A DNA stretch of 64,000 nt from Candidatus Bathyarchaeia archaeon (lineage in GTDB: Archaea > Thermoproteota > Bathyarchaeia > 40CM-2-53-6), in the NCBI GenBank assembly GCA_050013255.1, contig JBEKFP010000001.1, forward strand, positions 992,001-1,056,000. The letters run 5' to 3'. The position numbers and the translations under genes are program-made. Under the pieces are notes generated by a model that worked only from the letters and a program-made list of their open reading frames with translations, searched no databases and had not been told where the DNA came from. Below, one piece after another: positions 1,390 to 53,085 of this stretch (positions are counted from its first letter, which is position 1; each line of letters starts with the position of its first letter).

Positions 1390-1413
1390 ATCCTTAAGAC
1401 CCGCCAACTACTA

Positions 1414-26011: not shown

Positions 26012-26785
26012 CTAGTCCAGTTTGCTTAGTTCAAGTAAGAAATCGCAAAATCTCTCTACCAAACCGTCAACTATCTTGGTTCCCTTTTCTTTATTCCCCC
26101 TCGTGGCGTAACCTATCGTGCCGCTATTAGTTATCTCTTTGAAACTTGGTAAACCGAAACCGCTTACCTTGGGCGGGGCAGCATAGTGATCGTATTTGAT
26201 GAACGAGGATTCCGTCTTAGGTACTTCATCCGTCGCGGCAGCCATCACAACTCGCTGATCTAGGCCCAACGCCAGGGACGTCTCGTGTTCATCAGCGTGA
26301 AAAACAGGGCGTCCACACGTCTTGTCTATAATGTCGGATCCTATTTCCCAGTAGCCTGTTTGATAGAGGCGTGCCTTTGTCTCAAGCGTGAGTTCGCTTA
26401 TGACTATTTGTAATGCAGGGGTATTGCCACCATGGCCATTGATAATGACTATCTTTCTGAATCCGTGACTAATTAGACTCCGACAGACATCCTTCATTAA
26501 CTCAATGAATGTTTCGGTTCTCAGACTTATCGTCCCTGGAAAACCCATGTGATGCGGAGAAATCCCGTAAGGAATCGTTGGACACACAACCACCTGAACT
26601 TTATCTCTCAGTCTTAGCGCGACAAGCTTTGAAATCTCAGTGGCCGTGTAGTGGTCGTTATCCACGGGTAGATGCCTGCCATGCTGTTCCGTCGAACCCA
26701 CGGGAACGATCGCGATATTCGTCTTCTGTAGGGCATCACTTACTTCAGGCCAAGTTAGCTTGGACAAACGATACTCTTTTGACAT
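26012..26785 (-). CDS. Creatininase / mycofactocin peptidase-family amidohydrolase
   Basis: PVGSTEQHGRHLP.DND, GISPHH..FPGT, NGHGGN, HADEHETS. Confidence 0.92.
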   Translation of the reverse strand: MSKEYRLSKLTWPEVSDALQKTNIAIVPVGSTEQHGRHLPVDNDHYTATEISKLVALRLRDKVQVVVCPTIPYGISPHHMGFPGTISLRTETFIELMKDVCRSLISHGFRKIVIINGHGGNTPALQIVISELTLETKARLYQTGYWEIGSDIIDKTCGRPVFHADEHETSLALGLDQRVVMAAATDEVPKTESSFIKYDHYAAPPKVSGFGLPSFKEITNSGTIGYATRGNKEKGTKIVDGLVERFCDFLLELSKLD

Positions 26786-26849
26786 AACGAAGGAATGCCG
26801 TAAGCTTGGTAGTATAACACGGCACCCGTTTGCGAGACTGAGAAGCAGT

Positions 26850-26957
26850 CACAGCGTTATTATCAGCGCGCAGTACGTGCTCGCATATTTTCACAGCAGC
26901 AGTGACATGGGTCTTGTGCAGACCAAACTGCCAACCCAATTTCAGGTTCTCTAATGG
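26850..26957 (-). pseudogene. Short relic resembling a class III aminotransferase (HemL-like) segment
   Basis: LENLKLGWQFGL...AVKICEHVLRAD resembles TENGWHFGL...SETITKNVPSAE in the 18328 hemL fragment. Confidence 0.35.
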
Positions 26958-27214
26958 GAAACGATTTCAGTGATTCGCGGCTCTCTTGGGGTCTTCCTAC
27001 CCAAATCCTGTTAGAGACACAAACACAGATTCGTTTGCCTTGCTCCATCCGTGGCTAGGAACTCTCGAACGTATTTGTAGGGTCCGAGTCTGTGGAGAAC
27101 GTGCCACATCGGAACGTTCACGATGATAGGCTTGTGTATGGGACCTCTTTTCCATCATGGCCTACAGCAAATGAAAATAGCACGGCCGTTCATTCATGAA
27201 TTGGTTTTTATGAA

Positions 27215-28363
27215 ATGATTCGAATTGATGCCAAACAAATCTTGGATTTGCTCAAGCAGTTAGTCAGAACACCAAGCGTCAACCCCGCCATAGATCACAG
27301 TCAGGATGAGGGAGCGATTGCGGACTTGATCGCCAAATGGTTCAGAAAGACTGGTCGCTTCAGCGTCTATGAGCAGAAGGTTGCCAAAGGGAGATTCAAT
27401 GTTGTGGCCATTCTCAGAGGGACGGGTCGTGGAAGAAGCCTGATGTTGAATGGTCATATGGACACCGTTGGCACAGTCGGGATGACCGTGAAGCCCTTCA
27501 CTCCCTCCATCGTGAACGGTAAATTGTTCGGCCGAGGTTCATGCGACATGAAAGGATCCATAGCCGCGATGATTGGTGCCATGGCGGCGCTGGCCGCTTC
27601 CAATAGGAAATTGGCGGGAGACGTACTGTTCACAGGAGTTGTTGACGAGGAGTATATGAGCATAGGAACTTCTGAACTCATTAAACGGTTCCGAGCTGAC
27701 GCCGCAGTCGTGGGTGAGCCCACAAACATGAACATCGGCGTCGCCCACAAAGGATACGCGTGGCTGGAGGTTGAAACTATTGGCAAACCCGCTCACGGAT
27801 CGATGCCGGAGAAGGGTATCGATGCAATTGAAAAGATGGCGCTACTCATCAGTCTCCTTGGTTCGATTCGCAGGAAGTACAATCTCAATAGGCATCCCCT
27901 CCTCGGAGTAGCTAGCATTCACACATCGACGATCACTGGTGGCTCGGATTGGAGCACCGTCCCCGCAAGATGCGTGTTGGATCTTGAACGAAGACTGCTT
28001 CCCGGTGAAGACCCTCAAGATCCTGTCGAGGAGCTGCGAAAGGCCATCAAGGAATGTTCACGGCGAGACAAAAGCCTCAAGGCTACCGTCCGGCTGATTC
28101 ATCACGCGGACCCGATGCAAATCAATGATGCTCCTCACATTTCGATCCTGAAGAAGAATCTGAGTGGACTAGGTCGGATAGTCGGTGTCCCGTATTGGAC
28201 TGATGGTTCCATTCTTTGGAACCGGGCTGAAATCCCAACCTGCCTTTTTGGTCCAGGAGATATCGCCGTAGCTCATGGGCCTGCCGAACATGTCAAAATA
28301 GAAGATGTCCTCAGGGCTGCGCGCGTCTATGCTGAGACAGCAGCTGCTTACTGCATCGCGTAA
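27215..28363 (+). CDS. M20-family (ArgE/DapE-like) deacylase
   Basis: LNGHMDTV, GRGSCDMKG, VDEE, VGEPT, GKPAHGS, FGPG...AHGPAE. Confidence 0.92.
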   Translation: MIRIDAKQILDLLKQLVRTPSVNPAIDHSQDEGAIADLIAKWFRKTGRFSVYEQKVAKGRFNVVAILRGTGRGRSLMLNGHMDTVGTVGMTVKPFTPSIVNGKLFGRGSCDMKGSIAAMIGAMAALAASNRKLAGDVLFTGVVDEEYMSIGTSELIKRFRADAAVVGEPTNMNIGVAHKGYAWLEVETIGKPAHGSMPEKGIDAIEKMALLISLLGSIRRKYNLNRHPLLGVASIHTSTITGGSDWSTVPARCVLDLERRLLPGEDPQDPVEELRKAIKECSRRDKSLKATVRLIHHADPMQINDAPHISILKKNLSGLGRIVGVPYWTDGSILWNRAEIPTCLFGPGDIAVAHGPAEHVKIEDVLRAARVYAETAAAYCIA

Positions 28364-28415: not shown

Positions 28416-29363
28416 CTAGCCCTCAACTTTCCAGAACTGCTTTAAGCCTTGATCGGCAAATTCTATTATGAATCCCCGCAAAACATTCTCGCCGTATTCG
28501 GAACCAGGGTTAATGACTGGAGTCTTGCCAATTTTATCGGTTCCGGCAGATTCATGAATGTGACCGTGCAGCCCTATCATGGGCTGATACTTCTTTATCG
28601 CCTCCCTAACGGCCTTGCTGCCCACGTGTTCCGTTTGAACGCCGCCGGGACCCATAATTGGGGAGAGATCTTTCTTGAGTTTAGGCGCCATGTCAAGATT
28701 CGTGCCATATGGCGGCGGATGAATGTTGAATATGGACTTCGATGGATTCGAGAGCTTGGCGACTAATTCATCAATCTTCTTGCCTAATTGCTTCTCTTCG
28801 AGTTCTCTTGGCGAATTCCAGGGGGTTGGATTTGAATCCGCCAAGCTGATGGTTTCAAAACCGGCGAGTTCAACGACCTTATCAAGTGAGTATACGATGC
28901 CGCGATCTTCGTAGGATCGGATTACGTCGTCTATGGCAAGTGGGTCGTCGTTACCCGGCATCACTAGGACCCGTGTCTTCTTTACGTCGATCTTGTCGAG
29001 CAGGAGATCCAGCCACTCCCTCAATCGTGCCTTGATTAGTTCCGTAATGGTTTCCTCAACCTTTCTCTGATTGACTTTGAACTCCTCAATCTCCGCAGGA
29101 GTGCATTCAATCACGTACGGGCCCCCCTTCTCGAGTGAATCTTTGACCTCTTGAACTTCAGCGTCAGTAGTCAGTGTCCGCGTTACGCCGTAGGTTAGAA
29201 GTCGAGTACCGTCATTCTGCTTTGTGAGCGGAATAAGGATCTTTCCTGTCAAATCCCCGCAAAACATCAGTATATCGACATTGTACATTCCCGGGGTTCT
29301 CAACCATTTCTTCCAGGTGCCTGTCGCGCCATGGACATCTACAGAGAAGAAGGCCTTGGTCAT
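28416..29363 (-). CDS. Icc-related calcineurin-like metallophosphoesterase, copy 1
   Basis: DVHG, GDLTGK, PGNDD, NPTPW..PRE, HPPPYG, HGHIHES, NPGSEY. Confidence 0.88.
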   Translation of the reverse strand: MTKAFFSVDVHGATGTWKKWLRTPGMYNVDILMFCGDLTGKILIPLTKQNDGTRLLTYGVTRTLTTDAEVQEVKDSLEKGGPYVIECTPAEIEEFKVNQRKVEETITELIKARLREWLDLLLDKIDVKKTRVLVMPGNDDPLAIDDVIRSYEDRGIVYSLDKVVELAGFETISLADSNPTPWNSPRELEEKQLGKKIDELVAKLSNPSKSIFNIHPPPYGTNLDMAPKLKKDLSPIMGPGGVQTEHVGSKAVREAIKKYQPMIGLHGHIHESAGTDKIGKTPVINPGSEYGENVLRGFIIEFADQGLKQFWKVEG

Positions 29364-29464
29364 CTCAATCGATCAACTACTTCCTAAGCGAACCTGCCGG
29401 AAAGAGTAATACATTGTCTACGTACGGTAATTAGACTAAATTGAATGTCGAACACATCGGAAAC

Positions 29465-29486
29465 AAAAAAGGGGCCAGGAAGACCC
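29465..29486 (-). terminator. Hairpin plus T6 terminator after the APC permease
   Basis: Minus strand GGGTC-TTCCT-GGCCC-CTTTTTT immediately after the stop at 29497. Confidence 0.5.
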
Positions 29487-29496
29487 ATTGCCGCGC

Positions 29497-31080
29497 TTAC
29501 TCCGGCGGGATTTCCTGGTAGATTTTCGAAACGTCAATACCACGTGCTGCGTTCTTTGCCTGCATCCCTAAGTAAACTACGAGTCCTATGACAACCCAGA
29601 TTGCCAGAAAAGCCATCGACGAGAAGTCCAGTTCAAGCACCGGGAAGAGGAGTAACCAAGTGCCAATGCCTACGGTGAGTAATCCTAGGATTGAAATTAC
29701 TGGTATTCCGGCCACTTTCTTTTGAAGTGGGGAAAGTTTGAACATGTCCGGGCGTTTGAATGGGAGAATCATCGCCGCCATTCCGAATATGAAGAAGATA
29801 CAATACCATGTGAAGTCGAGTGTTGCCAGCAATACTGGGATGTTTCCGACGTAGACGAAGATGGACACTAGTCCAATAATGAAAGCCACCAGTAAGCCCC
29901 AGTAAGGAACGCCTCGGCTCTCGCTGACATTCGAGAATCTCTGCGGCAGTGCTCTATCGAAGCTTTGAGCAAATAGTATCCTTGATGTTGCGACTAGAAC
30001 GGGTGGAACAGTGTTGTAGAACCAGATGGATACCATGGTCATCAGTATCACAGCTACCCAAACGTTCGGAACTAGTGAACCGGCAAATAGCGGCACTGAG
30101 GGTCTTGTAGCAGGCAGTATGCCATTGAGTACGGCCGGGTACTTGTCCCACAAGTATGTGTAGGCACTAATCAGGCCTGAGTTTGTGTAGGGGTACCAGA
30201 TAGATCCTGCTACGATTACGTACAGGAACCAGGTTCCGATGAACCCTCCTATGAGACCGTTGAAAAGGCTCTTCTTAGGTGTCTTGACCTCACCAGCTGC
30301 AAATGAAACGCTCTCCCATCCTGTGAATGCCCAGTAGACGACTAGCAGCATACCCAATGTGCTCCCCATAGAGAATGTCGGGTTCGTCCAGCCATTGGCT
30401 GATGCAGCGCTGATAATCTTCTCCGCGACGCCAGCTCCCCACGTGTTATCGAATGCGGCAAAAGCTCCACCGGGACCGACAGTAAAGGGGATTATTATGA
30501 AAGCTGCCGTGGCGATTATTGGAATGATTGTTATCACTCGCATTAGCCACTTTACTGCCCCGAGACTGTACATAGTGACTAAGAAGAAGACGACAAGTGC
30601 TAGTAGCGAGACCGCGAATCTCCCTATAGTACCGGTCATCCACACCCCTACACTAAGCATTGATGGAACGTTCGCAGCATGTCCACCCAGCACGAACACC
30701 GACGCCAGCACGCCGGTCGCAACCCATGCCATCACACCCGTTGTCAAGCCGTTTCCGAGCATATAGATCCATGAGAAAACGAAGGATACTGTTGGATCAA
30801 TCAGCCTGCTCATGACAACATACATGCCCCCCGAGCGAGGCATTATTTGGAGCATGTACGCGAGGGTTATGGCAATAGGAAGCATTGTCACGCCGCCCAG
30901 CAAGAAAGATAACCAAGGCATGGCGCCCCGATACGTCGTAGCCGTTGTGACCTGATAGTAGAGCATTCCCGAAGCGGCTGGACACGCAATTGCCCAGATA
31001 ATCACGTCCCACGTACTCAGTTCTCTTACGAGTCCTGTAGCTTGTCTTACGAAGAACGCACCCTTTTGTTGTTCAGTCAA
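29497..31080 (-). CDS. APC-superfamily permease, copy 2
   Basis: FVRQATGLVRE, MPRSGGMYV, GWES..FAAGEVK, SRILFAQSFDR, C-terminal YQEIPPE; 12 or more TM. Confidence 0.9.
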   Translation of the reverse strand: MTEQQKGAFFVRQATGLVRELSTWDVIIWAIACPAASGMLYYQVTTATTYRGAMPWLSFLLGGVTMLPIAITLAYMLQIMPRSGGMYVVMSRLIDPTVSFVFSWIYMLGNGLTTGVMAWVATGVLASVFVLGGHAANVPSMLSVGVWMTGTIGRFAVSLLALVVFFLVTMYSLGAVKWLMRVITIIPIIATAAFIIIPFTVGPGGAFAAFDNTWGAGVAEKIISAASANGWTNPTFSMGSTLGMLLVVYWAFTGWESVSFAAGEVKTPKKSLFNGLIGGFIGTWFLYVIVAGSIWYPYTNSGLISAYTYLWDKYPAVLNGILPATRPSVPLFAGSLVPNVWVAVILMTMVSIWFYNTVPPVLVATSRILFAQSFDRALPQRFSNVSESRGVPYWGLLVAFIIGLVSIFVYVGNIPVLLATLDFTWYCIFFIFGMAAMILPFKRPDMFKLSPLQKKVAGIPVISILGLLTVGIGTWLLLFPVLELDFSSMAFLAIWVVIGLVVYLGMQAKNAARGIDVSKIYQEIPPE

Positions 31081-31115
31081 AGAAATTTTCCTCGCAGGTG
31101 GTGAGGAAGAAATCG

Positions 31116-31131
31116 ATTTAACACTTTCCTA
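31116..31131 (-). promoter_or_regulatory. Probable BRE+TATA promoter of permease copy 2 (TAGGAAAGTGTTAAAT)
   Basis: 14/16 identical to 1414-1429; about 36 nt upstream of the start. Confidence 0.55.
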
Positions 31132-31375
31132 AATAGAAAAATCTGGTATAGACTGAAGTGTTTGTATTAACTAAAAACCGGTTTGCATTAGGCAAAACAG
31201 ATTCGTATAGGTGTAAACAAGGTCATCTTGCCCAGAGAGTCAGGAGAGTAATCGCGATCGGTGTTCCACAACCTTGACTTTCGCGGCGCCTTTCACTAGC
31301 CTTCTTGAAGAAGCGGTCGTCAGCTAATCAGAACCCATTGCTTTGAGCTGAGGTAGCTGCGAGCTCGGTATGCTT

Positions 31376-32455
31376 TCAGAAAGCTATGGGCGTATCGATA
31401 GCTTCTTCCCACCAAGGCTTCGAATACTTCTTGTCCACGACGGGAATCGCCTCGAGGAGAGTGGCTAGCTTTTGGTCTATGGCCTGTACCACTTTGTCTG
31501 GGACTCCGCGCTTTCGGAGGATATCAGTCCTGTTCTTGAGGTTGTCCAGGTTTAATCTGACAGTCAGCCTCATCTTATCATCACGCCGGAGTTGGTCAGC
31601 CAACAGGCTTAGGTCAATATTCTCAGGTCCTGTGCCGAAGTCATGATCGTAAATTAGGGCACTCACATCCGTCAAATCTTTCAGCTCCATCCCAACAATG
31701 ATGAAGCCTCTTCGATAGCTTGGATAAGCAAGAATCCGAAAGTTTTGTCCATGTTCTTCCAGTTGCGCAACAACATCGTCCTGGGCTTCGAGAATGTACT
31801 GACACTTGGAGAGCAGGAGGTTGTTTAGTGAGATAGTATGGTGTTCATTCGTTACCGTTAGATCCTTTCGGCAATCGATCTTATGACGCATTTCAATGCG
31901 ATCAACAAAAAAGTCTAGGACCCCGATCATCGGTCTATTATCGGTTATGTCGTCAACCACATGATATCGAAAACGTTTGTTGACGCGAAGTCCATTGAAA
32001 GTCTTGTCTAATCGCGTGGCAAAATGAATAAACTGCGCCCCGAAAGCCTGATCAAGCTTGAGTAAGAGCCTGGTTGCGTATTTCACCTGACTCTTAGCGA
32101 CTATGAAATCTAGATCATGAAGTTCTCGAAAGAACGGAGCTCCTTGACCATTGGTGCTTCGGCATCGAACCTTGATTGCGCCTCCCCCGAATAGGGCGAG
32201 ATTTACGGGTTCATCAGTCAGGGGCTGGCGATAGACTGACGGAAAAAGTTCATGTAGCCGCGGAGCATTTCTCGCGGCCCAGAGAGCCACCACGGCCCTT
32301 TGCATTGGCACGTAATTCATGTCTACCCAATCGGGTATGTTAAGATCCTTCTTCATTGCTTGTAGGTCGGCTTTATTGCTCAGGGGCCAATCCACTTCAA
32401 GCGCGGTGCCGTCGTCTTCCGTGAAAAGTGAGATTCTCGTAGGTGTGGCGGTCAA
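31376..32455 (-). CDS. Nucleotidyltransferase-fold protein, copy 2 (long variant)
   Basis: LFGGGAI...LHDLDF...VLDFFVDRIEMRH, LLLSKCQ, KDLTD, SKPWW. Confidence 0.65.
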   Translation of the reverse strand: MTATPTRISLFTEDDGTALEVDWPLSNKADLQAMKKDLNIPDWVDMNYVPMQRAVVALWAARNAPRLHELFPSVYRQPLTDEPVNLALFGGGAIKVRCRSTNGQGAPFFRELHDLDFIVAKSQVKYATRLLLKLDQAFGAQFIHFATRLDKTFNGLRVNKRFRYHVVDDITDNRPMIGVLDFFVDRIEMRHKIDCRKDLTVTNEHHTISLNNLLLSKCQYILEAQDDVVAQLEEHGQNFRILAYPSYRRGFIIVGMELKDLTDVSALIYDHDFGTGPENIDLSLLADQLRRDDKMRLTVRLNLDNLKNRTDILRKRGVPDKVVQAIDQKLATLLEAIPVVDKKYSKPWWEEAIDTPIAF

Positions 32456-32582: not shown

Positions 32583-33326
32583 TTATTCTGGCTCATTCGG
32601 TGAACTTCTGAAATCCCGTTTTCCGCGAATCAACTCGTATGTTGAGGTGGCAAGAATGTCTATCGTATCGAAAAGTGGGATGTGGATATCGCCTTGTCGT
32701 ACGAGCAGTGGGATCTCCGTGCAGCCTGCAATAACGCCTTCAATGCCTGCTTTCTTTCTCACATTATTGATGATGCTAATTATCGAGGCTCTGTCGAATT
32801 GAGTTCGACGGCCCGATTCAACGTTGATAATTATTCGTTCAATTAGCCGTTTCTGGGCCGCGTCGGGCTTAACCAAGCTGATTTCGCGGTCAGTCAAGGA
32901 GTTATCGTATATCTGGCGGTTGACTGTAAACCTGGTGCCGAGCAACAGTACCTTTCTCAAACCTTTGGCTCTGATTTCCTGTGTGGTCTCTTCGACTATG
33001 CTGAGCACCGGGATCTTGACTGCACTCCTCATAATTGGGAGAAAGTAATGAACCGAGTTGCAAGGGATTGCGATAAAATCGGCTCCTGCTTTTTCGAGAA
33101 GTTTAACATTGGATCGCAATACTTGTTCGACTTTTGATTTGTTGAATCCTCTCCACATTCGGCCGTCAGGAACGGGGCAACTGTTTATGATGATGGGCGG
33201 AAAATCTGAATTATACTTCGCCCCGAGTTCCCGCTGGCACCGACTGATGATTCCCACGTATAGGCTTGCTGTAGCTTCTGGTCCCATGCCTCCAAGGATT
33301 CCCAGTTTTCGAACATATTTTCTCAT
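32583..33326 (-). CDS. Aspartate/glutamate racemase-family (PLP-independent) amino acid racemase
   Basis: GILGGMGPEAT, IPCNSVH, LLGT, AGCTEIPL. Confidence 0.92.
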   Translation of the reverse strand: MRKYVRKLGILGGMGPEATASLYVGIISRCQRELGAKYNSDFPPIIINSCPVPDGRMWRGFNKSKVEQVLRSNVKLLEKAGADFIAIPCNSVHYFLPIMRSAVKIPVLSIVEETTQEIRAKGLRKVLLLGTRFTVNRQIYDNSLTDREISLVKPDAAQKRLIERIIINVESGRRTQFDRASIISIINNVRKKAGIEGVIAGCTEIPLLVRQGDIHIPLFDTIDILATSTYELIRGKRDFRSSPNEPE

Positions 33327-33706
33327 CCTTTCTATACTTCCAGTTCAGTCTGTGTCTATGAACCGATGATTTGCTAAGCAGCAAAATGAAGCGGCCCACA
33401 CATTGCACATTCGATAACCAGCCGGCGTGCTAATTAGCGAATTTTCTTCACCCTTGCGCTGACTCACATTGACGGTTTCATATGAAGATCGAATGCTTCG
33501 TCTAGTAAACGATTATGTGTTCCAACTAAGGGAGGGTCATTTTGAATAAACTACGCTATGAGAAAATTGTATGTACACTGCCGCTGGATTTGCTTTGAAC
33601 GGTTCGTGGGTGAACGCGTCCACTTGAAAAATCTGCAAGCCCATGACTGAGAACAGGGGGAAGATCTTAAAGATGCTTTCCGAATTGCTCAACCTCGAAT
33701 GATGAA

Positions 33707-34750
33707 GTGATGAAAACGATTAAGGTTGTTCAATATGGTGTAGGCCCGATCGGGCTCGGGATTGTTGACGTTCTCCTAGCCCGACCTTGGATTCAGCTGG
33801 TTGGGGCAATTGACACCGACAAGAATAAGGTTGGAAAAGACGTTGGTCAGCTACTCAGTAATCCGCGAAAGACTGGGGTTACTGTGAGCGATAAGGCCGA
33901 AGATGTTCTCAAGAAGATTAAGCCAGACATAGTGACACACGCGACCTCTTCCTACATGAAAACGATCCAACCACAAATCGCTCAAATCATAGAAACTGGA
34001 ACAAGTGTCGTCTCTACCGCAGAAGAACTCTCCTATCCATTTGTGAAATCCCCCGAGATAGCAACACAGTTGGACGAACAGGCGAGGGACAAGAACGCGG
34101 TGATCCTCGGGACGGGCATTAACCCAGGGTTCTTACTGGACACGTTGGCTGTTGCGTTGAGTGGCGTCTGCCAGAAGGTTAATTCTATTCGAGCCGAACG
34201 CGTTGTGGATGCTTCGCAGCGTAGATTACCACTTCAAAAGAAGATTGGGGCTGGGCTGACGCTTAGCGAATTTGAGAAGAAAGTGGCGGAAGGCACAATA
34301 AAGCACGTTGGCCTGCCCGAGTCGGTAGGCCTCATCGCTCTGGCTATGGGATGGAAAGTTGGCGAAATACAAGAGAGGATCACCCCAGTCATGGCCGAGA
34401 AGGAAGTTAAGAGTGACTACATCAAGGTCCCACCCGGTTCCGTAGCCGGAGTCAGGCAAGTCGCTAAAGGAATCCTTGCAGACCAAGAGCTCGTAGTGCT
34501 CGACCTACGAATGTACCTAGCGGCTGAGAACCCGCATGACTCGGTCTTAATTGACGGCATCCCCCCGGTCGACATGGTAATTCGGGGCGGCGTCCAAGGA
34601 GACCGGGCGACACCAGCCATAATTGTCAATTCGATTCCAAAAATGGTTGCCCTGAAACCTGGGCTGAGGACGATGCTTGACTTGCCGCCAATTCCGCCCG
34701 TTCAGAATCTTGAGATCGAGAATCGCTCTGTCATGACGAAAACATTCTAG
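33707..34750 (+). CDS. 2,4-diaminopentanoate dehydrogenase-like NAD(P)-dependent amine dehydrogenase (DapB_N family)
   Basis: YGVGPIG, VSTAEELSYP, GTGINPGF..D, HVGLPES, GDRAT, PGL.TMLDLP. Confidence 0.82.
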   Translation: MMKTIKVVQYGVGPIGLGIVDVLLARPWIQLVGAIDTDKNKVGKDVGQLLSNPRKTGVTVSDKAEDVLKKIKPDIVTHATSSYMKTIQPQIAQIIETGTSVVSTAEELSYPFVKSPEIATQLDEQARDKNAVILGTGINPGFLLDTLAVALSGVCQKVNSIRAERVVDASQRRLPLQKKIGAGLTLSEFEKKVAEGTIKHVGLPESVGLIALAMGWKVGEIQERITPVMAEKEVKSDYIKVPPGSVAGVRQVAKGILADQELVVLDLRMYLAAENPHDSVLIDGIPPVDMVIRGGVQGDRATPAIIVNSIPKMVALKPGLRTMLDLPPIPPVQNLEIENRSVMTKTF

Positions 34751-34758
34751 GCTCGTCA

Positions 34759-35817
34759 TTGACCTTGACGAACAACATGCGAATCGTTGATCTAAGAAGC
34801 GATACTGTCACGCTTCCCACCGAGGAAATGCTTGAAGCAATCCGGACCGCTGAGCTAGGAGACGACGTATACGGCGAGGATCCTAGCGTCAACCGTCTAG
34901 AGGAACTGGCTGCTAAGAAGATGGGCAAACAAGCCGCCCTATTGACAACCAGCGGAACACAAGCGAACCTTCTAAGCGTAATGAGTCAAACCGAACGTGG
35001 CGATGAGATTATTCTAGAAAGCGAGGCTCACATGTACTTCTACGAGGTTGGAGCTTTCTCCGTTCTAGGAGGGCTAATTCCTCGCCTAGTGAAAGGCAAT
35101 ATGGGCGTGATGACGCCTGAGAGCGTTGAAGCATCCCTCAGGCCTCCGAACATACACTTTCCACCCACAAGTTTGGTCTGCATAGAGAACACGCACAACC
35201 GGGCTGGAGGAACAATGTGGACGCCAACCCAAATCAAAGCGGTATCCGGCATCGCAAAGAAACACAAATTGAAAGTTCACATGGACGGCGCCAGGATTTT
35301 CAACGCCAGCGTTGCACAGAACATAGATGTTCGCGAGTTTACGCAGCACGTAGACTCACTAATGTTCTGCCTCTCAAAGGGGCTGAGTGCACCTATCGGG
35401 TCGCTGGTAGTCGGTGACCAAGCGTTCATTGACAATGCGCGACGGTATCGAAAAATGCTCGGTGGAGGCATGAGGCAAGCTGGAATAATTGCCGCGGCAG
35501 GTATTGTGGCCATCGAGAAGATGGTGGACCGGCTCAAAGATGACCATGCAAACGCAAAGAGACTAGCGACAGGACTGGCGAAACTAGGCTACGGAGTAGA
35601 CGCTTCGCGAGTTCAGACCAACATCGTCGTCTGCGGCGTAAGCGGACTAGGAACAAACTCGGGAGAATGGATATCGAAAATGAGCGAGCATGGAGTGAAA
35701 ACAGGCTCAGTCGACGCCGATCGAGTGAGGATGGTAACCCATCGCGGTATAGAAAAGGAAGACATAGATTTTGCGATCAACGCCGCAGAGAAGGTCGTGC
35801 ATCAGGCCAAAAAATAG
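34759..35817 (+). CDS. ltaE: Low-specificity L-threonine aldolase
   Basis: DLRSDTVT, GDDVYGEDP, SGTQAN, ENTHN, HMDGARIFNA, CLSKGL.AP.GS, GGGMRQAG. Confidence 0.93.
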   Translation: MTLTNNMRIVDLRSDTVTLPTEEMLEAIRTAELGDDVYGEDPSVNRLEELAAKKMGKQAALLTTSGTQANLLSVMSQTERGDEIILESEAHMYFYEVGAFSVLGGLIPRLVKGNMGVMTPESVEASLRPPNIHFPPTSLVCIENTHNRAGGTMWTPTQIKAVSGIAKKHKLKVHMDGARIFNASVAQNIDVREFTQHVDSLMFCLSKGLSAPIGSLVVGDQAFIDNARRYRKMLGGGMRQAGIIAAAGIVAIEKMVDRLKDDHANAKRLATGLAKLGYGVDASRVQTNIVVCGVSGLGTNSGEWISKMSEHGVKTGSVDADRVRMVTHRGIEKEDIDFAINAAEKVVHQAKK

Positions 35818-42929: not shown

Positions 42930-44180
42930 TTATGTGCTTACTACTTCTTGGACGACTTGCTTGAATTCATCATCTGTTAGAGCGCGTTTGTGTTCGATCC
43001 CTGCCTGTTTCACACGCGTGAGTATTGGGGCAATCTTATCCTCCGGAGCCGTAAGTCCCAACTCTTTGAGCTTGTAGGTGATTGACGGCCTGCCGCTTTT
43101 CTTTCCAACGACGATCTTGTGGCTCGCTCCGCCGACGAATTCGGGTGTGAAGGCGAAAATTTCTAGGGGCGATAGGTTTTGGTCACGTATCCTGTCCCAC
43201 CAACCCGCTACGATTCCAGATTCCACCGTGAATATTCCGTCGCCCACGACCGCCTTTCCAGGCGGCATCTTTACGCCTGAACATTCCTGAACGAGTTTTG
43301 AGAGCGGTGTGAGTTTGTCGTATTTTATGTTATTATCTATCCCGTACAAGCACTTTGTGGCCATCGCCACCTCTTCGAGCGGAGCACCGCCAGAGCCTTC
43401 GCTAATCCCGTTGACGGTCGTGTGAATTACTTCTGCGCCTTGTTGGACGGCCGCTATGGAATTTGCCACAGCGAGGCCGAACGTGTTGTGGCAGTGTATC
43501 TCGATTGGCTTCCGAACCTTCGCCTTGAGCTTCTTCACAAGGTAAGAGATTGCGACCGGTGAAGCAACGCCGAACGTGTCAACCACAGTTAGTGCATCCA
43601 TGTGGCCTTTTGTAGCGACTGCGTTGATGATTTTCCAGCATGTCGAGAATGGTGACCTCGTGGAGTCTAGAGTGAAGAACGTTACGTAGAGGCCGTGTTC
43701 ATGCGCATAGCTTGTGCTCTCAACGGTAAGTTCAAGTGCTTTCTCCACCGTCCAACCATAAGCATTCTTGAGGAGGGTTTCGCTTGTCGGTATTTCCATC
43801 TGAACGCCATCAACGTCACATCTTAACGCGTTGTCAACGTCCGCTTTCATACACCGGGATAGGCAGAAGATCCTGGCATTCAGGCCCATACCCTTAATCG
43901 TCTTGATTGCTTGCGCGTCCTCCTCAGAAACGCCAGGCATGCCTGCTTCTATTCGGTCGACGCCCGCCTCGTCCAAGAGCTTAGCGATTCTGATTTTCTC
44001 ATCCTTTCGAAAGACAAGACCGGCCTGCTGTTCGCCGTCCCTTAGAGTAAGGTCGTGGAATTTGATTTTCTTAGGGAATTTCATTCCCTTTCTTGCTTGG
44101 CTGTCATAATTGTAGTGGCTAACACGATAATTCTTAGTGTTCCACGGTTCCTTCAATGGAAGTACCCAAGCAGGTAGCAT
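42930..44180 (-). CDS. DRE-TIM metallolyase (homocitrate/isopropylmalate synthase-like, no regulatory domain)
   Basis: DLTLRDGEQ, IEAG, DTFG, HCHN, KAVVG..IF..ESGI, GKKSG. Confidence 0.85.
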   Translation of the reverse strand: MLPAWVLPLKEPWNTKNYRVSHYNYDSQARKGMKFPKKIKFHDLTLRDGEQQAGLVFRKDEKIRIAKLLDEAGVDRIEAGMPGVSEEDAQAIKTIKGMGLNARIFCLSRCMKADVDNALRCDVDGVQMEIPTSETLLKNAYGWTVEKALELTVESTSYAHEHGLYVTFFTLDSTRSPFSTCWKIINAVATKGHMDALTVVDTFGVASPVAISYLVKKLKAKVRKPIEIHCHNTFGLAVANSIAAVQQGAEVIHTTVNGISEGSGGAPLEEVAMATKCLYGIDNNIKYDKLTPLSKLVQECSGVKMPPGKAVVGDGIFTVESGIVAGWWDRIRDQNLSPLEIFAFTPEFVGGASHKIVVGKKSGRPSITYKLKELGLTAPEDKIAPILTRVKQAGIEHKRALTDDEFKQVVQEVVST

Positions 44181-44284
44181 CCGAGAGCAATATTTATGCT
44201 ACGGCTGAGTTTTCCAAAAGAGAGAAACTCTGATACTTTTCGATAGTAGCATCGCATGCATCCCGATTGAAATATGTTAAGTGC

Positions 44285-45262
44285 CTAACTTTTCGGCGCG
44301 TGCAAATGTTCCTTCGGAAATTCAACGCCCACTGTGTACTGTAACTTGCCGGCGTTAAGGACCATCTGATAGGTGTTCACTCTGACTCCGGGACAGGTCG
44401 ACAGGACGAGGTAGGCGTCACGGTGATTTCTTCCGTAGTCCTCTTTGAGCCAATCCATCATCCAAAGCATTGCTTGCTTAACAGCTTCTTCCAGAGGTCT
44501 GAAGGAATTGAGTTGGATTATGGAGTCTTTCTTTTCCACGCGTACGAAGGGTATGGATTTCTTCTTGATGACCCGGCATGATAGCCTGACTTCTGCAGAA
44601 CATTCGTCGGCTACGCCTGAGAATTCTGTATCGCCCATACACGCATGAACGTCCCCGAGAAAGAGTAATGCACCATCGGTGAATATCGGGAAGTACACTC
44701 TGCTTCCCTTGCAAATGTCCCTAGAGTCTAGGTTGCCACCATAAGGTCCCTGATTCATCGCTGAGGCCAAGTACTCCCATTCAGGCGCAACTCCGATAGT
44801 GCCAATGTGCGGCTTCAGGTCCCACGTGTCCCCAGTGGGAAGGACAGCTTTACCGTCGGAGGTAGTTCCGCTGGGACCTTTAGTGTGCCTGATTATGCTC
44901 GTGAAGGGGCCTCTGCATTCACTGTACTTCACCGAGTCTGAAAGTGGCCCGAAATCAGTTATAATCCAATGGGCGCCCTGATCGCTGGGTATTATGTCAA
45001 TTATGTCGACCGCTAGTATGTCTCCTTTCCGTGCATTTTTGACATAGATTGGCCCGGAGAGGAAATTCGCTTTCATAGGTGACGCTACGAGTAGATCGCC
45101 TAGAACTTCTGGAACTGGCAGGTCTTTCGCGGTCTTAATTCGGTTTCCGAGAGCATCAACAGTCTCAACAGCAAACTCCTCGCCTTCCTCGACTCGAAGT
45201 AATGGTTCTGCTTGGCTGGAAAACGCGTATTGTTTTGCTTTCGACCGGTCTATTCGTTGCAT
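44285..45262 (-). CDS. Acetamidase/formamidase-family protein
   Basis: ETVDA, LSGPIYV, GTIGVAP, GGNLD, LGDVHACMGDTE. Confidence 0.9.
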   Translation of the reverse strand: MQRIDRSKAKQYAFSSQAEPLLRVEEGEEFAVETVDALGNRIKTAKDLPVPEVLGDLLVASPMKANFLSGPIYVKNARKGDILAVDIIDIIPSDQGAHWIITDFGPLSDSVKYSECRGPFTSIIRHTKGPSGTTSDGKAVLPTGDTWDLKPHIGTIGVAPEWEYLASAMNQGPYGGNLDSRDICKGSRVYFPIFTDGALLFLGDVHACMGDTEFSGVADECSAEVRLSCRVIKKKSIPFVRVEKKDSIIQLNSFRPLEEAVKQAMLWMMDWLKEDYGRNHRDAYLVLSTCPGVRVNTYQMVLNAGKLQYTVGVEFPKEHLHAPKS

Positions 45263-45321
45263 AAACCGCGTCGCAATACCCACCATTAAATATAGCTTTT
45301 GTATGATGTGCACGATTCATT

Positions 45322-46320
45322 TTGAGTGAAGTCGAGCTATGCGGAATTCACGTTAGTGCAGGCGAGAAGAAGGAAACATTTCTTGATGTGACTGCAACGA
45401 AGCCTCCGGCTTCTGTGCAAATCCCGATGACTATCATCAATGGTGCTAAGGAAGGGCCAACCCTTGCAGTTATTGCTGGCGTTCATGGCACGGAATACGC
45501 AGGCGTTGAGGCAGCGATACGAGCCGCGAAGGAGATTAATCCGCGAACGCTAAACGGGACATTGGTGGTTGTTCCGGCCGCGAATTGGCCTGCTCTATAT
45601 ACAAGAACTGTTGGCGTCTGTCCTTTGGACAACGTCGAATTATTCCGTGCGTTTCCAGGCAACCCAGACCGCTCAATAACCTACGTGATCGCAAGCCGAA
45701 TCTTCAATGACATAGTTCTCAAGAGCGATTTTGTCATCGACCTTCATGGAGGAGAAATGATCGAATCCAAGGCAAACCGTTGCTGCTGGTACGTCGAGAC
45801 GGGAACGGAAGATACTCGAAAGGCCTCGAAGCAGTTGGCAATCGCATTTGGCCTACCAAACATCTTGGACACTACGATGGTAATGGTTGGCAACGATAAA
45901 TGGCCCGGTCCAAGCGGAACCCTCCTATACGAAGCATCCTCGCGCGATGTACCGACTATCATTGGAGAAGCCGGAGGCGAGGGCAAAATTGAAGAAGACT
46001 CCGTCGCTGACCTCAGAAATGGAATTCAAAATGCACTCATACATATAGGCATGGTGAAAGGAAAACGTAAACCCTCACGAAAACCAACAGAACTAACCGA
46101 CCTAACAGGGCTAGTAGCAGATTCAGACGGCATATTCTTCTCCAAAGTCAAAACAGCTGAGAAAGTTAGGAAGGACCAGTTGATTGGAGAGGTCAAAGAC
46201 ATTCGTGGCCAAAGAGTACAGGAACTAATTGCACCATTCAACGGGCTAGTCCATGCGCAGTATTGCGCGCCAATCACCAGAAAAGGCGAACCCACAATCT
46301 GGTTCGTACGAAAGCGTTAG
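45322..46320 (+). CDS. M14 succinylglutamate desuccinylase/aspartoacylase-family deacylase
   Basis: AGVHGTE, RAFPG, IDLHGG, EAGG, C-terminal biotinyl-like domain. Confidence 0.9.
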   Translation: MSEVELCGIHVSAGEKKETFLDVTATKPPASVQIPMTIINGAKEGPTLAVIAGVHGTEYAGVEAAIRAAKEINPRTLNGTLVVVPAANWPALYTRTVGVCPLDNVELFRAFPGNPDRSITYVIASRIFNDIVLKSDFVIDLHGGEMIESKANRCCWYVETGTEDTRKASKQLAIAFGLPNILDTTMVMVGNDKWPGPSGTLLYEASSRDVPTIIGEAGGEGKIEEDSVADLRNGIQNALIHIGMVKGKRKPSRKPTELTDLTGLVADSDGIFFSKVKTAEKVRKDQLIGEVKDIRGQRVQELIAPFNGLVHAQYCAPITRKGEPTIWFVRKR

Positions 46321-46348: not shown

Positions 46349-47203
46349 TTAACGGGATACTTCGCCGACTTCTCTATACCAAGGCTTAGAAGTACCCGTC
46401 TTAGCACGCTTCTCCCAATCCTTCGTCTTGGGGCATGCATCAATAATCTTCCGCAACCCAGCCACCCTATCTGTGACAATAGCACACTGCCCGTCGGTAA
46501 TACCTGCCTTCTGACTCGCCAGCTCACGAGCCAGCGCATCTACCGACCCTAGGTTGTTCGTCGCGTCGTACCAAAATCCCCAATCGTTAGATAGTATCCT
46601 CGAAACATATCCGGCATCTATCATGTCATTGCCCGGTTCCTCTAGAACGTCATGCCCTAAGAAGAGGACGATTAAATCTAATACGTCTTTGCGATTGATC
46701 TGATGTATTTGCAATTTTTCGAGAACTATGTCCGCAAGGGATATTGTTGGGTAGTCAAGTTCTAGCCTTCCCGAGCCGGGCTTTTTCCCGAATTCAACGT
46801 CGTGGCTGAATTCCAGTTTGTCAATGAATAGGTCGATTGGAAACTTGCCTTCAGGATGATGGTAAATCAGCCTTCGTCCTCCGAACATCATATTAGCCAT
46901 GTTGTCCGGTTTGAACCCCGCCTCCTCGAGGATCTTGGTTGCATTACCTCTTTGCTTACCATATAACGCGAGGTCTAGGTCTGTGAACATGGGCTTTCCA
47001 TCACCGAGCCTGCCCAATGATTTGAACGCTGACAGGGCAACCTGGTTGTCGAGGGAATGAACATAAACGGCGAAAGCGCCTAGGAATCTCAGGAAGATTT
47101 GCTTTGCCTGAGCTTTTTCGACAATGACGCTCGCTTCCTTGAGAAACTCGGTCTCATTCATCTGAACGAAGTGTGCTGGTTGGGTCAAAGGAAGATTGGG
47201 CAC
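46349..47203 (-). CDS. Nucleotidyltransferase-fold protein, copy 3 (start may be 47161)
   Basis: FLGAFAV...FTDLDL...PIDLFIDKLEFSH, IVLEKLQ, KDVLD, DWGFW, KPWYREV. Confidence 0.7.
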   Translation of the reverse strand: MPNLPLTQPAHFVQMNETEFLKEASVIVEKAQAKQIFLRFLGAFAVYVHSLDNQVALSAFKSLGRLGDGKPMFTDLDLALYGKQRGNATKILEEAGFKPDNMANMMFGGRRLIYHHPEGKFPIDLFIDKLEFSHDVEFGKKPGSGRLELDYPTISLADIVLEKLQIHQINRKDVLDLIVLFLGHDVLEEPGNDMIDAGYVSRILSNDWGFWYDATNNLGSVDALARELASQKAGITDGQCAIVTDRVAGLRKIIDACPKTKDWEKRAKTGTSKPWYREVGEVSR

Positions 47204-47548
47204 ATCCTGCCTTCGCTTGCATCACGTGAATTTCGACACAATTAATAGAGGTTATGACTAGCAAGCGACGCTGACAAAAGCCTCACTGCAATTCCAGAAC
47301 AACTCCATCCAGCTACTCCCGGAATCATTCAAGAGATGTCGAAACCAATTGATAGCATTGGGCTATTTTTCAATGCACATGGTGGAACATTGACGTATCA
47401 GCTGGAGGTGGGCGCTTGCCTAAATGATATAAACACGAATCAAAACTTTGCAATACCAAGGAATGGCCTCCATATCTTGCCCCTGATAAGGAAATGTTCG
47501 AAAACTATATATTTCGCCAATTCATGCCGAAAGTGCGAGTGAAAGTAT

Positions 47549-49138
47549 TTGGCTGCCAAGCAGGAATTTTTTGCTAGGAAAGCTTCAGGTCTCGTGAGGC
47601 AAATCTCAGCCAAAGACGCATTGATGTTTAACATTCTATTCATGGGGCCTAATTGGACTTTCATCTACATTGTTTTTGACGCTGCGCTCTACCCTGGTGC
47701 AAACGTGCCTTTAGCCCAACTGATTGTTGCCCCCCTCATCTTCATAGTCGCGTTAACTTACACTATGCTGGCGGTGACGATGCCTCGGGCGGGGGCGGAC
47801 TTCGTTTGGATCAGCAGATCAATTCATCCCTTCGTCGGTTTCATTGAGAGCTGGATCTTGGTAGTTTTCATCGCATCGTATTTTGGCGTACAGGGAAGCG
47901 CATTCATTGGGCCCGCAATCGGGAGCCTCTATGGTGGCTGGGCGTTGATCACGAACAATCCGGGACTGACGAGCATGATTGCGACCCTCACCACTCCGCT
48001 GAATCTGGTAATCTTCACCGTGATCTGTATTGTAATAACTCAGATACAGGTCGCTGCTGGAACAAAGAACTACTTTAGACTTCAGTGGGTCTGGTTCAGC
48101 TTCGTCTGCTTGGGCATTCTACTCTACGCGGGCTCAATGCTTCTGACTGGACACGATGGATTCGTCGCAAGATTCAATCAACTCTCAGGTATGAACTACG
48201 ACAACATAATAACGGCTGCGCAGTCGGCAGGCTACAACACCGGTTTCACTACATTCGGAATGCTGTTCGGAACGGTGTACGCATTCTTGATTTACTGGGG
48301 CTTCTCGTGGTCCTCATTTTTCGCTGGAGAAATGAAAGAGGCATACCGGTCCCAGATCATCGCGATAGTAGGCGGTGTAATCATCTTCGCGTTCGCGACC
48401 TGGGGACAATACCAGATCGCCTACATGGTTGTAGGCCAACCATTCATGCATGCCGCATCATACCTTGCCGTGTCCGGTAACCCTGCATGGACCGCGCCGA
48501 CAGGCCCCTGGCTCTGCTACCTTGTAGCTTTCGCAACCAACAATCCCTATGTCGCAGCAATAGTCGCATCCTCAATTCTGATTGGCGTCTTAGGAACGCT
48601 GGCGTCGTACTCATTCATGATGACAAGAGTGTTGTTCGCGTGGTCTTTCGACCGTCTCCTCCCAACTGCGTTCTCGAACCTTGACCGGCAATTTCACTCA
48701 CCAAGAAATGCCCTCGGCCTTGCATTCGTCTTAGCTATGGTCTTCGTCTACCTCGGTAACTATACGACCTTGCTTAACTACCTAGTCTACGGAACTCTGG
48801 GATTATGGGCAACTTCCACGATTGTCGGAATTGCCGCCGCAGTATTTCCGTATAGGCGCAAGGATATCTTCGAGAAAGCGCCCGGGATTGCGAAGAAGAT
48901 GATCGGCAAAGTTCCCTTGATGGCACTGCTAGGAGCGATAACCGCCGTCGTCAGCGCCTTCGGCGCAATCGCATCCGCTCTGCCGCAATTCATTGGTGCT
49001 CCGGTCAACCCATTCTACGTAGCGGCCGCAGGCGCAACAGTGTTCATTGGAATCATCTACTTCGTCTTAGTCTACACATACAACCAGCGGAGAGGCCTCG
49101 ACATGACCATCGCCTTCCGCGAAATACCGCCCCTATAA
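47549..49138 (+). CDS. APC-superfamily permease, copy 3
   Basis: FARKASGLVRQ, MPRAGADFVWISR, FAGEMK, TRVLFAWSFDR, C-terminal FREIPPL. Confidence 0.9.
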   Translation: MAAKQEFFARKASGLVRQISAKDALMFNILFMGPNWTFIYIVFDAALYPGANVPLAQLIVAPLIFIVALTYTMLAVTMPRAGADFVWISRSIHPFVGFIESWILVVFIASYFGVQGSAFIGPAIGSLYGGWALITNNPGLTSMIATLTTPLNLVIFTVICIVITQIQVAAGTKNYFRLQWVWFSFVCLGILLYAGSMLLTGHDGFVARFNQLSGMNYDNIITAAQSAGYNTGFTTFGMLFGTVYAFLIYWGFSWSSFFAGEMKEAYRSQIIAIVGGVIIFAFATWGQYQIAYMVVGQPFMHAASYLAVSGNPAWTAPTGPWLCYLVAFATNNPYVAAIVASSILIGVLGTLASYSFMMTRVLFAWSFDRLLPTAFSNLDRQFHSPRNALGLAFVLAMVFVYLGNYTTLLNYLVYGTLGLWATSTIVGIAAAVFPYRRKDIFEKAPGIAKKMIGKVPLMALLGAITAVVSAFGAIASALPQFIGAPVNPFYVAAAGATVFIGIIYFVLVYTYNQRRGLDMTIAFREIPPL

Positions 49139-49259
49139 TTTCACAGGACAAACCTAACCGAACAGGCTCTCCTCACAACTGAGCGGAGAGTCAGCTCTCA
49201 CTTTCTAGTCGACTAACTGAACTTTGTGCTCCAGTCGTCGTCTGTACCTTCGGGGCACT

Positions 49260-51599: not shown

Positions 51600-51701
51600 C
51601 GAATGGCAACCAACAAGCACCTTCGTACGGCCCCGTTCAGGCAGATCTTAGGCCACATCATGGGCCGGAACGACTCTTAGGACGTAATGTTGAGCTCACG
51701 G

Positions 51702-52949: not shown

Positions 52950-53001
52950 CCAAGATTCCTCTCCAAATGACCGTGATCCGATTCCTCGTTCTTCACCTTC
53001 C

Positions 53002-53085
53002 AAGTTCCACTAGTAACTTGAATCGGACATTTCTTGAACGCGCCCACCTGCGCCTAGGTTTTGATATACCCTTCTAGTGGAACTT
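53002..53085. repeat. Perfect 12-bp inverted repeat AAGTTCCACTAG / CTAGTGGAACTT with a 60-nt spacer
   Basis: Arms at 53002-53013 and 53074-53085 flank a TATA-like box upstream of ThrC-like paralog 2. Confidence 0.6.

Follow-up and report, generated by a model that had tools for sequence, protein, structure and literature searches.

Three recurring genes in a Bathyarchaeia genome

A group of three genes recurs in a 64,000-nucleotide stretch of DNA from a Candidatus Bathyarchaeia archaeon, hereafter the window (G000:C1:992001-1056000, in a genome of 2.46 Mb on three contigs). The group is made up of an APC permease (P), a metallophosphoesterase (M) and a nucleotidyltransferase-fold protein without a Pfam match (N). 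A first-pass annotation, made from the sequence letters, had described three co-directional genes of these families at 28416-32455, the same three in another orientation at 46349-50234 and two of them at 1-2357. All of them are real open reading frames (ORFs) at those positions, and the recurrence holds. The genes of the three copies, called E, F and D, are listed below in window coordinates unless a contig is named.

28416-29363, minus strand: M of copy E, 315 amino acids (aa), Pfam Metallophos_3 at 30.1 bits; motifs DVH, GD, GNDD, H215 and GHIH
29497-31080, minus strand: P of copy E, 527 aa, AA_permease_2 with E 1.2e-25; N-terminal FxRxA[ST]GLxR and C-terminal ...EIPPE
31376-32455, minus strand: N of copy E, 359 aa from a TTG start, long form; blank in Pfam and NCBIfam
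46349-47203, minus strand: N of copy F, 284 aa, standard form; more than 1000 homologues
47549-49138, plus strand: P of copy F, 529 aa, AA_permease_2 with E 2.7e-17; termini FFARKASGLVR and ...REIPPL
49260-50234, minus strand: M of copy F, 324 aa; weak Pfam matches to Metallophos_3, Metallophos_2 and Metallophos
1-1407, minus strand: P of copy D, the N-terminal 469 codons of a 521-aa permease (AA_permease_2 with E 1.1e-15) that leaves the window at its left edge; the full-length gene is G000:C1:991842-993407
1551-2357, plus strand: N of copy D, 268 aa, standard-form nucleotidyltransferase
G000:C1:990640-991722, 279 bases to the left of the window: M of copy D, found by genome-wide phmmer

The genes of copy E are indeed co-directional, lying head to tail on the minus strand in the order M, P, N by coordinate. 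Copy F has the order N(-), P(+), M(-), and the part of copy D inside the window reads P(-), N(+). Divergence between copies is strong, as the first-pass annotation had noted: the N proteins of copies F and D are 34% identical (E 4e-50) and those of E and F 23% (E 1e-4), while M of copies E and F share 37% (E 3e-70) and their permeases 27%. The copies are old, strongly diverged paralogues. The statement that no other member of the three families occurs in the window also stood when all ORFs of the genome were searched with phmmer (E<=1e-3).

Linkage of N, M and P across the genome

Searching each protein against all ORFs of the genome with phmmer recovered ten genes for N and nine for M, with one weak relative in addition, and a profile search recovered 10 genes of the permease subfamily to which P belongs. 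Both an M and a P gene lie less than 5 kb away from eight of the N genes, giving eight complete trios, seven on contig 1 and one on contig 2. Each trio spans 3.5-5.6 kb, and the eight show eight different gene orders or orientations. Under random placement, the probability of finding eight trios would be about 1e-20 by a rough estimate. The trio is confirmed as a real unit, conserved through divergence and rearrangement. The corresponding claim of the first-pass annotation, that linkage outlives both, holds in this genome and likewise in other Thermoproteota, Asgard archaea, Planctomycetota, Chloroflexota and Actinomycetes.

The genes outside complete trios have neighbours of their own. Directly upstream of the sole orphan M lies an 80-codon remnant of the C-terminus of a subfamily permease, ending in ...KQIAPD (L009:5878-6120 and L009:6136-7092; G000:C1:558878-560092), and this remnant marks the orphan as a decayed module. 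An ammonium transporter (Amt) gene is followed, 1.1 kb downstream, by one orphan N, a small ORF resembling low-molecular-weight phosphatases lying in between (L008:4223-7356; G000:C3:269223-272356), and a lone N in another genome (L065) adjoins a glutamine synthetase gene; both neighbours are nitrogen-related, each as a single case. The second orphan N shares 58 nt with the beginning of a TldD/PmbA pair of metallopeptidase genes and faces an M24 (creatinase/prolidase-type) peptidase gene (L007:3351-8345; G000:C1:135351-140345).

Distribution and co-occurrence of the three families

The distribution of the three families was assessed in 300 other Thermoproteota genomes, evenly sampled, and in 151 Planctomycetota genomes. 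Among the Thermoproteota, 55 genomes had N, 54 a full-length M and 56 a subfamily P; every one of the 54 with M also had P, and 53 of them N. The misfits comprise a gene with an internal stop, matches at contig edges and two borderline permease matches. In Planctomycetota, all three families are confined to the same five genomes, the remaining 146 having none. Across 452 sampled genomes from two phyla, subfamily P was never found without the nucleotidyltransferase and the phosphodiesterase. Complete trios also occur in Odinarchaeia, Chloroflexota, Actinomycetes and Planctomycetota. Gene-neighbourhood and phyletic-profile analysis in two phyla thus bore out the expectation of the first-pass annotation that the three families co-occur in other genomes, and none of the outcomes that it had named as a refutation was observed.

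Trio-positive Thermoproteota are scattered over many families, and presence varies even within a genus: in g32, all three occur in the genomes G126 and G134, while neither N nor M nor the canonical P is found in G003. This scatter, together with the all-or-none pattern within a genus, shows that the three genes are gained and lost together.

In most lineages, adjacency is the usual arrangement. Of 20 further Thermoproteota loci with N and M, 16 show a gap of less than 150 nt or an overlap between the two genes, often of 1-4 nt, and P lies between them in three more. Because gene order and strand vary freely, adjacency is preserved although the operon has no fixed form. Sulfolobaceae, Caldivirga and most sampled Vulcanisaeta have the genes at scattered places, and co-presence persists there even though they are unlinked. 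Sulfolobaceae (Metallosphaera, Acidianus, Saccharolobus solfataricus and S. islandicus) carry a single full-length N beside one to four M genes and a minimum of three or four P genes; P and M remain in adjacent or overlapping pairs and N is solitary. The single N gene of S. islandicus, S. solfataricus and Metallosphaera sedula is represented by AAK42684.1, ACP36846.1 and ABP96173.1, for example. No conserved neighbour accompanies the lone N in Sulfolobaceae and Thermoproteaceae, where the adjacent genes encode a B12-binding protein, glutamine synthetase, PfkB, a methyltransferase or spermidine synthase.

N-M fusion and co-divergence

On four bacterial contigs, a full-length N, a linker of about 15 aa and a full-length M are joined in a single reading frame of 581-589 aa. 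The fusion genes, from three Planctomycetota and one unclassified bacterium, are located as follows.

L080:496-2241, N-M fusion gene
L081:5968-7710, N-M fusion gene
L083:285-2051, N-M fusion gene
L085:5947-7710, N-M fusion gene

A subfamily permease lies 1-4 kb from the fusion on all three contigs that are long enough, whereas the fourth breaks off some 2 kb beyond the fusion. Of the five genomes that were positive in the Planctomycetota scan, four contain the fusion, one of these being the source of a fusion contig. From the fusion it follows that N and M work together physically. The fusion favours both of the first two mechanisms put forward in the first-pass annotation, a writer/eraser pair and a second-messenger circuit. 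The permeases encoded next to these fusions exceed the usual length, their open frames running to 637-698 aa.

That the genes vary in order and strand and do not form one fixed operon could be read as a sign that the trio arose by chance or hitch-hiking, with no functional connection. We consider the probability of this to be negligible in view of the eight trios in one genome, the near-perfect co-occurrence in two distant phyla, unlinked genes included, and the N-M fusion proteins. Chance linkage was rejected, being contradicted by co-occurrence and fusion.

Evolutionary histories were compared by Mantel tests on the patristic distances of 27 trios. The correlation was r 0.59 (p 5e-4) for N against M, r 0.44 (p 5e-4) for M against P and r 0.10 (p 0.10) for N against P, values that are inflated by kinship, so that only the contrast between pairs is used. 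These sequence distances suggest that M co-diverges with P and that N does not.

N has the fold of a minimal Pol-beta nucleotidyltransferase

The N proteins of the window have no Pfam match and no NCBIfam match, and searches of solved structures with the N sequence, alone or as a profile, returned nothing meaningful. An AlphaFold2 model of N from copy F reached a predicted local distance difference test (pLDDT) score of 86. Its structural matches were ANT(2'')-Ia (Z 12.5, root-mean-square deviation 3.2 over 153 aligned residues), MenT1 (Z 11.7), 5uvd (Z 11.3), LnuA (Z 10.6), JHP933 (Z 10.5), TglT/MenT3 (Z 9.7), TM1012 (Z 9.4) and MenT4 (Z 8.9). The top of this list consists exclusively of minimal Pol-beta nucleotidyltransferases, with which Foldseek agrees (probability 1.0). 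The Pol-beta fold proposed in the first-pass annotation is thus recovered in the model, all top solved matches being nucleotidyltransferases, and the motifs it had listed are present and conserved. CD-NTases and cGAS-like enzymes rank far below ANT and MenT (CdnE 6wt9, Foldseek E 8e-3 and template-modelling (TM) score 0.25; cGLR, Z 5.4).

In the numbering of the N protein P0002, the conserved positions are G42/A45, D75/D77, D124...H134, K163.Q165, K172-D173..D176 and W275. Across 28 diverse N members, with the long form among them, G42, D75/D77 and D124 show little or no variation, and the same is true of R65, H134, K163, Q165, K172, D173, D176 and W275. The C-terminal tail is rich in Lys, Arg and Trp. 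As modelled, N has a minimal Pol-beta nucleotidyltransferase fold with intact G, DxD and D motifs.

Among described families, the nucleotidyltransferase family PF14907 (NTP_transf_5) gave sub-threshold matches in 14 of the 28 N members (best E 2.7e-6). P0002 scored 13.4 bits against it, for a gathering score of 31.2, and the window N proteins fall below the cut-off; PF14907 is the precomputed annotation of the Caldivirga N members and of several unnamed relatives. Weak matches to the AbiEii Pfam family (PF08843) were seen in two of the 28 members (best E 0.091, far below threshold) and in none of the window proteins. Some N members are named AbiEii-like in UniRef. N is a remote relative of PF14907 and DUF1814 within the Pol-beta superfamily.

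The long form found in copy E differs from standard N by about 80-90 additional N-terminal aa and an insert of 33 aa. That it is homologous to the standard family is secure at the level of sequence profiles (hhalign probability 99.9, E 3.6e-37), and it keeps the catalytic residues G90, D114, D116, D181, H191, K217, Q219, K259, D260, D263 and W348. This subfamily has 97 cluster representatives in 1.8 billion proteins. Its N-terminal extension has no Pfam match, and nor do the extra parts of the longer N relatives P0151, P0154, P0204 and P0094. In some Bathyarchaeia relatives, a long-form N lies a few kb from a standard trio (L054:11426-12541 and L055:1115-2203), and in G262 (C34:7544-8320) and G286 it takes the place of standard N beside M and P. 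A cluster of 92 archaeal 576-aa proteins (Microcaldota) in the ESM Atlas, all with PF00156, matches the whole N model at a TM score of 0.80; it may represent a fusion of N with a phosphoribosyltransferase.

M is a predicted calcineurin-like phosphodiesterase

The AlphaFold2 model of M from copy E (pLDDT 94) has the fold of a calcineurin-like phosphoesterase. Its matches were led by aq_1956 (2yvt, Z 23.6) and TT1561 (1uf3, Z 22.3), followed by MPPED2 (Z 19) and Mre11 (Z 18); the other neighbours include Rv0805 (Z 17), Mre11/SbcD nucleases (Z 16-18), GpdQ and PptH (6unc, Z 15.1). According to this model, M is a calcineurin-like phosphodiesterase whose nearest relatives are the uncharacterised aq_1956 and TT1561. 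The motifs D9-x-H11, G36-D37, G137-N138-D139-D140, H215 and G267-H268-x-H270 are invariant in 22 members. Motif III reads GNDD in place of GNH[D/E], the His being replaced by Asp, and an insert of about 80 aa (residues 42-125) separates motifs II and III. Against Metallophos_3 (PF14582; gathering score 28.2), M of copy E scored 30.1 bits over profile positions 194-238 only and M of copy F 27.3 bits. Because M begins directly at motif I it has no signal peptide, and it is cytoplasmic.

These structural neighbours bring in the possibility that N and M act on RNA, with N adding nucleotides to the 3' ends of tRNA or other RNA and the Mre11-like M trimming them, so as to link translation to amino-acid supply. 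Consistent with this, MenT1, TglT/MenT3 and MenT4 (Z 11.7, 9.7 and 8.9) are among the best matches of N, whose basic and Trp-containing tail, weak AbiEii matches in two of 28 members and AbiEii-like UniRef names point the same way, and M resembles Mre11/SbcD nucleases. However, an RNA target explains neither the tight linkage to one permease subfamily nor the co-loss with it, an antitoxin-like partner of the AbiEi/MenA kind is absent beside N, and a toxin of this kind would not usually reach eight copies in so small a genome, though toxin-antitoxin systems can be numerous. We regard an RNA-directed pair as improbable.

Conserved termini of the permease subfamily

P matches AA_permease_2/AA_permease over its whole length, and its profile matches GkApcT (E 4.6e-25) and SLC7 transporters. 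By sequence, it is a canonical APC/SLC7-type transporter, with GkApcT and SLC7 proteins as the nearest solved relatives. Two terminal motifs mark the subfamily: F-x-R-K-A-[S/T]-G-L-V-R close to the N-terminus and G-I-D-x3-A-[F/Y]-[K/R]-E-I-P-P-x, with which the protein ends. R10, [S/T]13 and G14 are invariant in all 41 aligned permeases, and R-x-A-[ST]-G-L-x-R was present in 25 of 25 Thermoproteota permeases and in all seven full-length ones examined from bacteria and Asgard archaea. In genomes that lack N and M, the closest related permeases do not have it.

A sister group of permeases (L090-L095, from G003, G191, G126, G149, G134 and G277; profile E about 1e-47 to 1e-54) lacks RKA[ST]GL and has an altered or missing C-terminal IPP end. 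In G003 and G191, which are without N and M, the sister permease is the only subfamily-like permease. A complex prediction for the permease P0007 and the N protein P0002, both with alignments, scored 0.00, which weighs neither for nor against binding.

Genomic surroundings and the nature of the target

The genes around the trio differ from copy to copy. Copy E is flanked (26012-28363 and 32583-35817) by a creatininase and an M20 amidohydrolase on one side, and on the other by an Asp/Glu/hydantoin racemase, a 2,4-diaminopentanoate dehydrogenase-like gene and a beta-eliminating lyase; from these annotations, the surroundings plausibly form a catabolic island for cyclic amides or D-amino acids. 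Copy F has an HMGL-like enzyme, a formamidase/acetamidase and an AstE/AspA-type deacylase on one flank (42930-46320) and a class-V aminotransferase and a PALP enzyme on the other (50412-53003). Next to other copies lie an amidase with a proline racemase, HpcH aldolases with a cyclase, an adenine deaminase or an aldehyde dehydrogenase. A distant relative is embedded in an frl-like operon (GntR/UTRA, P, M, N, PfkB kinase and SIS deglycase), which looks complete without N and M.

The presence of the trio always amid catabolic genes for nitrogen-containing compounds could suggest that N nucleotidylates the imported solute, for trapping or group translocation, and that M hydrolyses the adduct. The best structural matches of N are small-molecule O-nucleotidyltransferases, ANT(2'')-Ia at Z 12.5 and LnuA at Z 10.6, in agreement with such chemistry on the cargo. 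Yet the flanking pathways vary by copy and look complete without N and M, as in the frl-like operon; one N coexists with at least three to four different permeases in Sulfolobaceae; N and P distances are uncorrelated (r 0.10); N and M keep many invariant non-catalytic residues though their permeases are only 21-25% identical; and the net reaction would merely burn nucleoside triphosphate (NTP). Processing of the solute, the third mechanism offered by the first-pass annotation, is disfavoured by the variable flanking genes, by the single N per several P-M pairs and by the conservation of N and M against diverging P, and we hold it to be quite unlikely.

DNA of the window turns up in peat and wetland metagenomes. 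For the permease of copy E, contigs from RNA libraries (one soil study, two metatranscriptome libraries) match parts of 29913-30922 at >=99%, a weak hint of transcription in the field, with DNA carry-over possible. These contigs cover no part of N or M of copy E, which is not proof that these genes are silent and has no bearing on co-transcription.

A proposed switch on the permease

We propose that the trio would form one functional module, in which an APC/SLC7-type secondary transporter is served by two dedicated cytoplasmic enzymes. N would transfer a nucleoside monophosphate (NMP) from an NTP to a hydroxyl acceptor, and M, as an active binuclear-metal phosphodiesterase, would cleave the resulting phosphodiester. 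Together they would make up an opposing switch, its halves separate in archaea and fused in some bacteria. We give slightly less than an even chance to a transferase/hydrolase switch of this kind on a constant target, most likely the permease itself. The layout of a switch is suggested by the fusion of an NMP transferase with a phosphodiesterase in some lineages; GlnD, GlnE and Rel/SpoT are known switches with opposing activities.

The target would be common to all copies and tied to the permease, and not the varying cargo, because the cargo-related neighbours change between copies, because one N serves several permeases in Sulfolobaceae, because N and M are strongly conserved outside their catalytic residues and because the three families share one phyletic pattern. 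Its likeliest identity would be the permease itself. As M tracks P in evolution and position, it would be a permease-matched eraser and N a general writer, so that uptake would be switched by nucleotide or nutrient status. The folds and active-site motifs of N and M, the linkage, co-occurrence and fusion and the copy-number pattern are observed; the chemical opposition of N and M, the constancy of the target and its identity with the permease are what we infer here.

For both half-reactions, precedents by analogy may be cited. The minimal nucleotidyltransferase MntA AMPylates the protein HepT (PMC7641770), and the metallophosphoesterase PptH strips a Ser-linked phosphodiester group from carrier proteins (PMC8557913). 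The prime candidate site would be the invariant hydroxyl residue (Ser/Thr) within the N-terminal, cytoplasmic motif F-x-R-K-A-[S/T]-G-L-V-R, a residue that we name as a guess. In its full form, the proposal is that an APC/SLC7-type transporter is reversibly nucleotidylylated on this Ser/Thr by N and the mark erased by M, the subfamily being unable to work or to be controlled without the pair; this we advance as a tentative possibility.

Several points weigh against a switch on the permease. The activities of N and M are predicted from sequence and models. The closest folds to N modify small molecules (ANT, Lnu) or tRNA (MenT), not proteins, and the chemistry of M is only predicted, since the His of motif III is Asp and the nearest solved relatives are without known substrate. 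The conserved N-terminal motif of P may be purely structural, as it lies directly before transmembrane helix 1 (TM1); APC transporters generally carry a basic segment just before TM1. The Microcaldota pairing of an N-like protein with a phosphoribosyltransferase, as far as the model match goes, hints at nucleotide or phosphoribosyl pyrophosphate chemistry. Strict co-occurrence is to be expected of an indispensable helper more than of an optional regulator, and it would be explained just as well by a diffusible product.

Such a product is at the centre of another explanation, in which N makes a diffusible nucleotide (a linear or cyclic oligonucleotide or NMP-X) as a local second messenger, M degrades it and the permease is a sensor (transceptor) or a binding target. 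Fused synthetase-hydrolase enzymes are typical of messenger metabolism (Rel/SpoT, GGDEF-EAL), and the N-M fusions match them. One N with several permease-adjacent M in Sulfolobaceae would fit a synthase acting globally and phosphodiesterases acting locally, M has the cyclic-nucleotide phosphodiesterases Rv0805 (Z 17) and MPPED2 (Z 19) among its structural neighbours, and the strict three-way co-occurrence is accommodated as well. On the other hand, N is nearest to the acceptor-modifying ANT(2'')-Ia, LnuA and MenT, with CD-NTase and cGAS-like enzymes far lower; eight synthase/phosphodiesterase pairs in 2.46 Mb would cross-talk unless strictly local; and a receptor domain is not evident in the permease or neighbouring genes. 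We rate a messenger as rather unlikely. The probability left over by these readings goes to an explanation not yet conceived.

APC/SLC7 permeases are the main importers of amino acids and amines in all domains of life, and we know of no dedicated enzymatic partners for the prokaryotic ones. Should the two enzymes either modify the permease or use a nucleotide as a signal, they would represent a new principle of nutrient-uptake control; were direct reversible nucleotidylylation of the permease true, this would be a new class of post-translational transporter control, spanning archaea (Sulfolobales, Asgard) and bacteria. The trio is widespread in microbes of soil, peat, sediment and hot springs. 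Its function would give a first role to the aq_1956/TT1561 phosphoesterase clade and to PF14907-like nucleotidyltransferases, and the question is directly testable in genetically tractable Sulfolobales.

Comparison with known systems

The components have known folds, and the system matches no known kind: it is real, widespread and undescribed. A literature search found no relevant paper on the trio, aq_1956/TT1561/Metallophos_3, PF14907, Msed_2033/SULI_01845 or permease AMPylation.

As to N, ANT(2'')-Ia and LnuA are its best structural matches and share the catalytic carboxylate triad. However, identity is about 14-18%, with no family-level sequence match, and N has about 100 more C-terminal residues, a non-resistance context and a place in deep-branching archaea. 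AbiEii/MenT1, MenT3 (TglT) and MenT4 (DUF1814) have a nucleotidyltransferase core with a helical C-terminal domain, as N does, and in the comparison with DUF1814 the C-terminal domain of N shows conserved K...Q and K-D..D motifs. In contrast to these, N fails the profile match, and it is accompanied by a permease, a metallophosphoesterase and catabolic enzymes, with no AbiEi/MenA gene. The likeness of N to the uncharacterised nucleotidyltransferase family PF14907 (NTP_transf_5) is sub-threshold.

The MNT/HEPN type VII toxin-antitoxin system MntA-HepT (PMC7641770) also relies on a minimal Pol-beta nucleotidyltransferase, MntA, which AMPylates a partner encoded next to it. The partners in the trio are a membrane permease and a phosphodiesterase, whereas no HEPN RNase is found and no toxin-antitoxin behaviour is indicated; N, unlike MntA, continues into a helical C-terminal domain like that of MenT and JHP933.

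M shares the calcineurin-like fold with aq_1956 and TT1561 (Metallophos_3), both without known function, but differs from them by the insert at residues 42-125 and the GNDD motif III, and sequence similarity is confined to the C-terminal 60 residues. PptH (6unc; PMC8557913) has the same fold and shows that such an enzyme can remove a Ser-linked phosphodiester from a protein.

The remaining comparison is with GlnD and GlnE, of which AmtB-GlnK is the transporter-level example. Here the differences are that N is a minimal enzyme of 250-360 aa without Pfam or NCBIfam match to GlnD or GlnE, that the remover in the trio is a calcineurin-like metallophosphoesterase where theirs is an HD domain or a second nucleotidyltransferase domain, and that the partner is an APC permease in place of Amt or glutamine synthetase; no PII gene lies in or beside the eight trios. 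The likeness is that of a Pol-beta transferase and an opposing remover within one system or polypeptide. The output of GlnD and GlnE controls nitrogen uptake or assimilation, and the N-M fusion mirrors their bifunctional layout.

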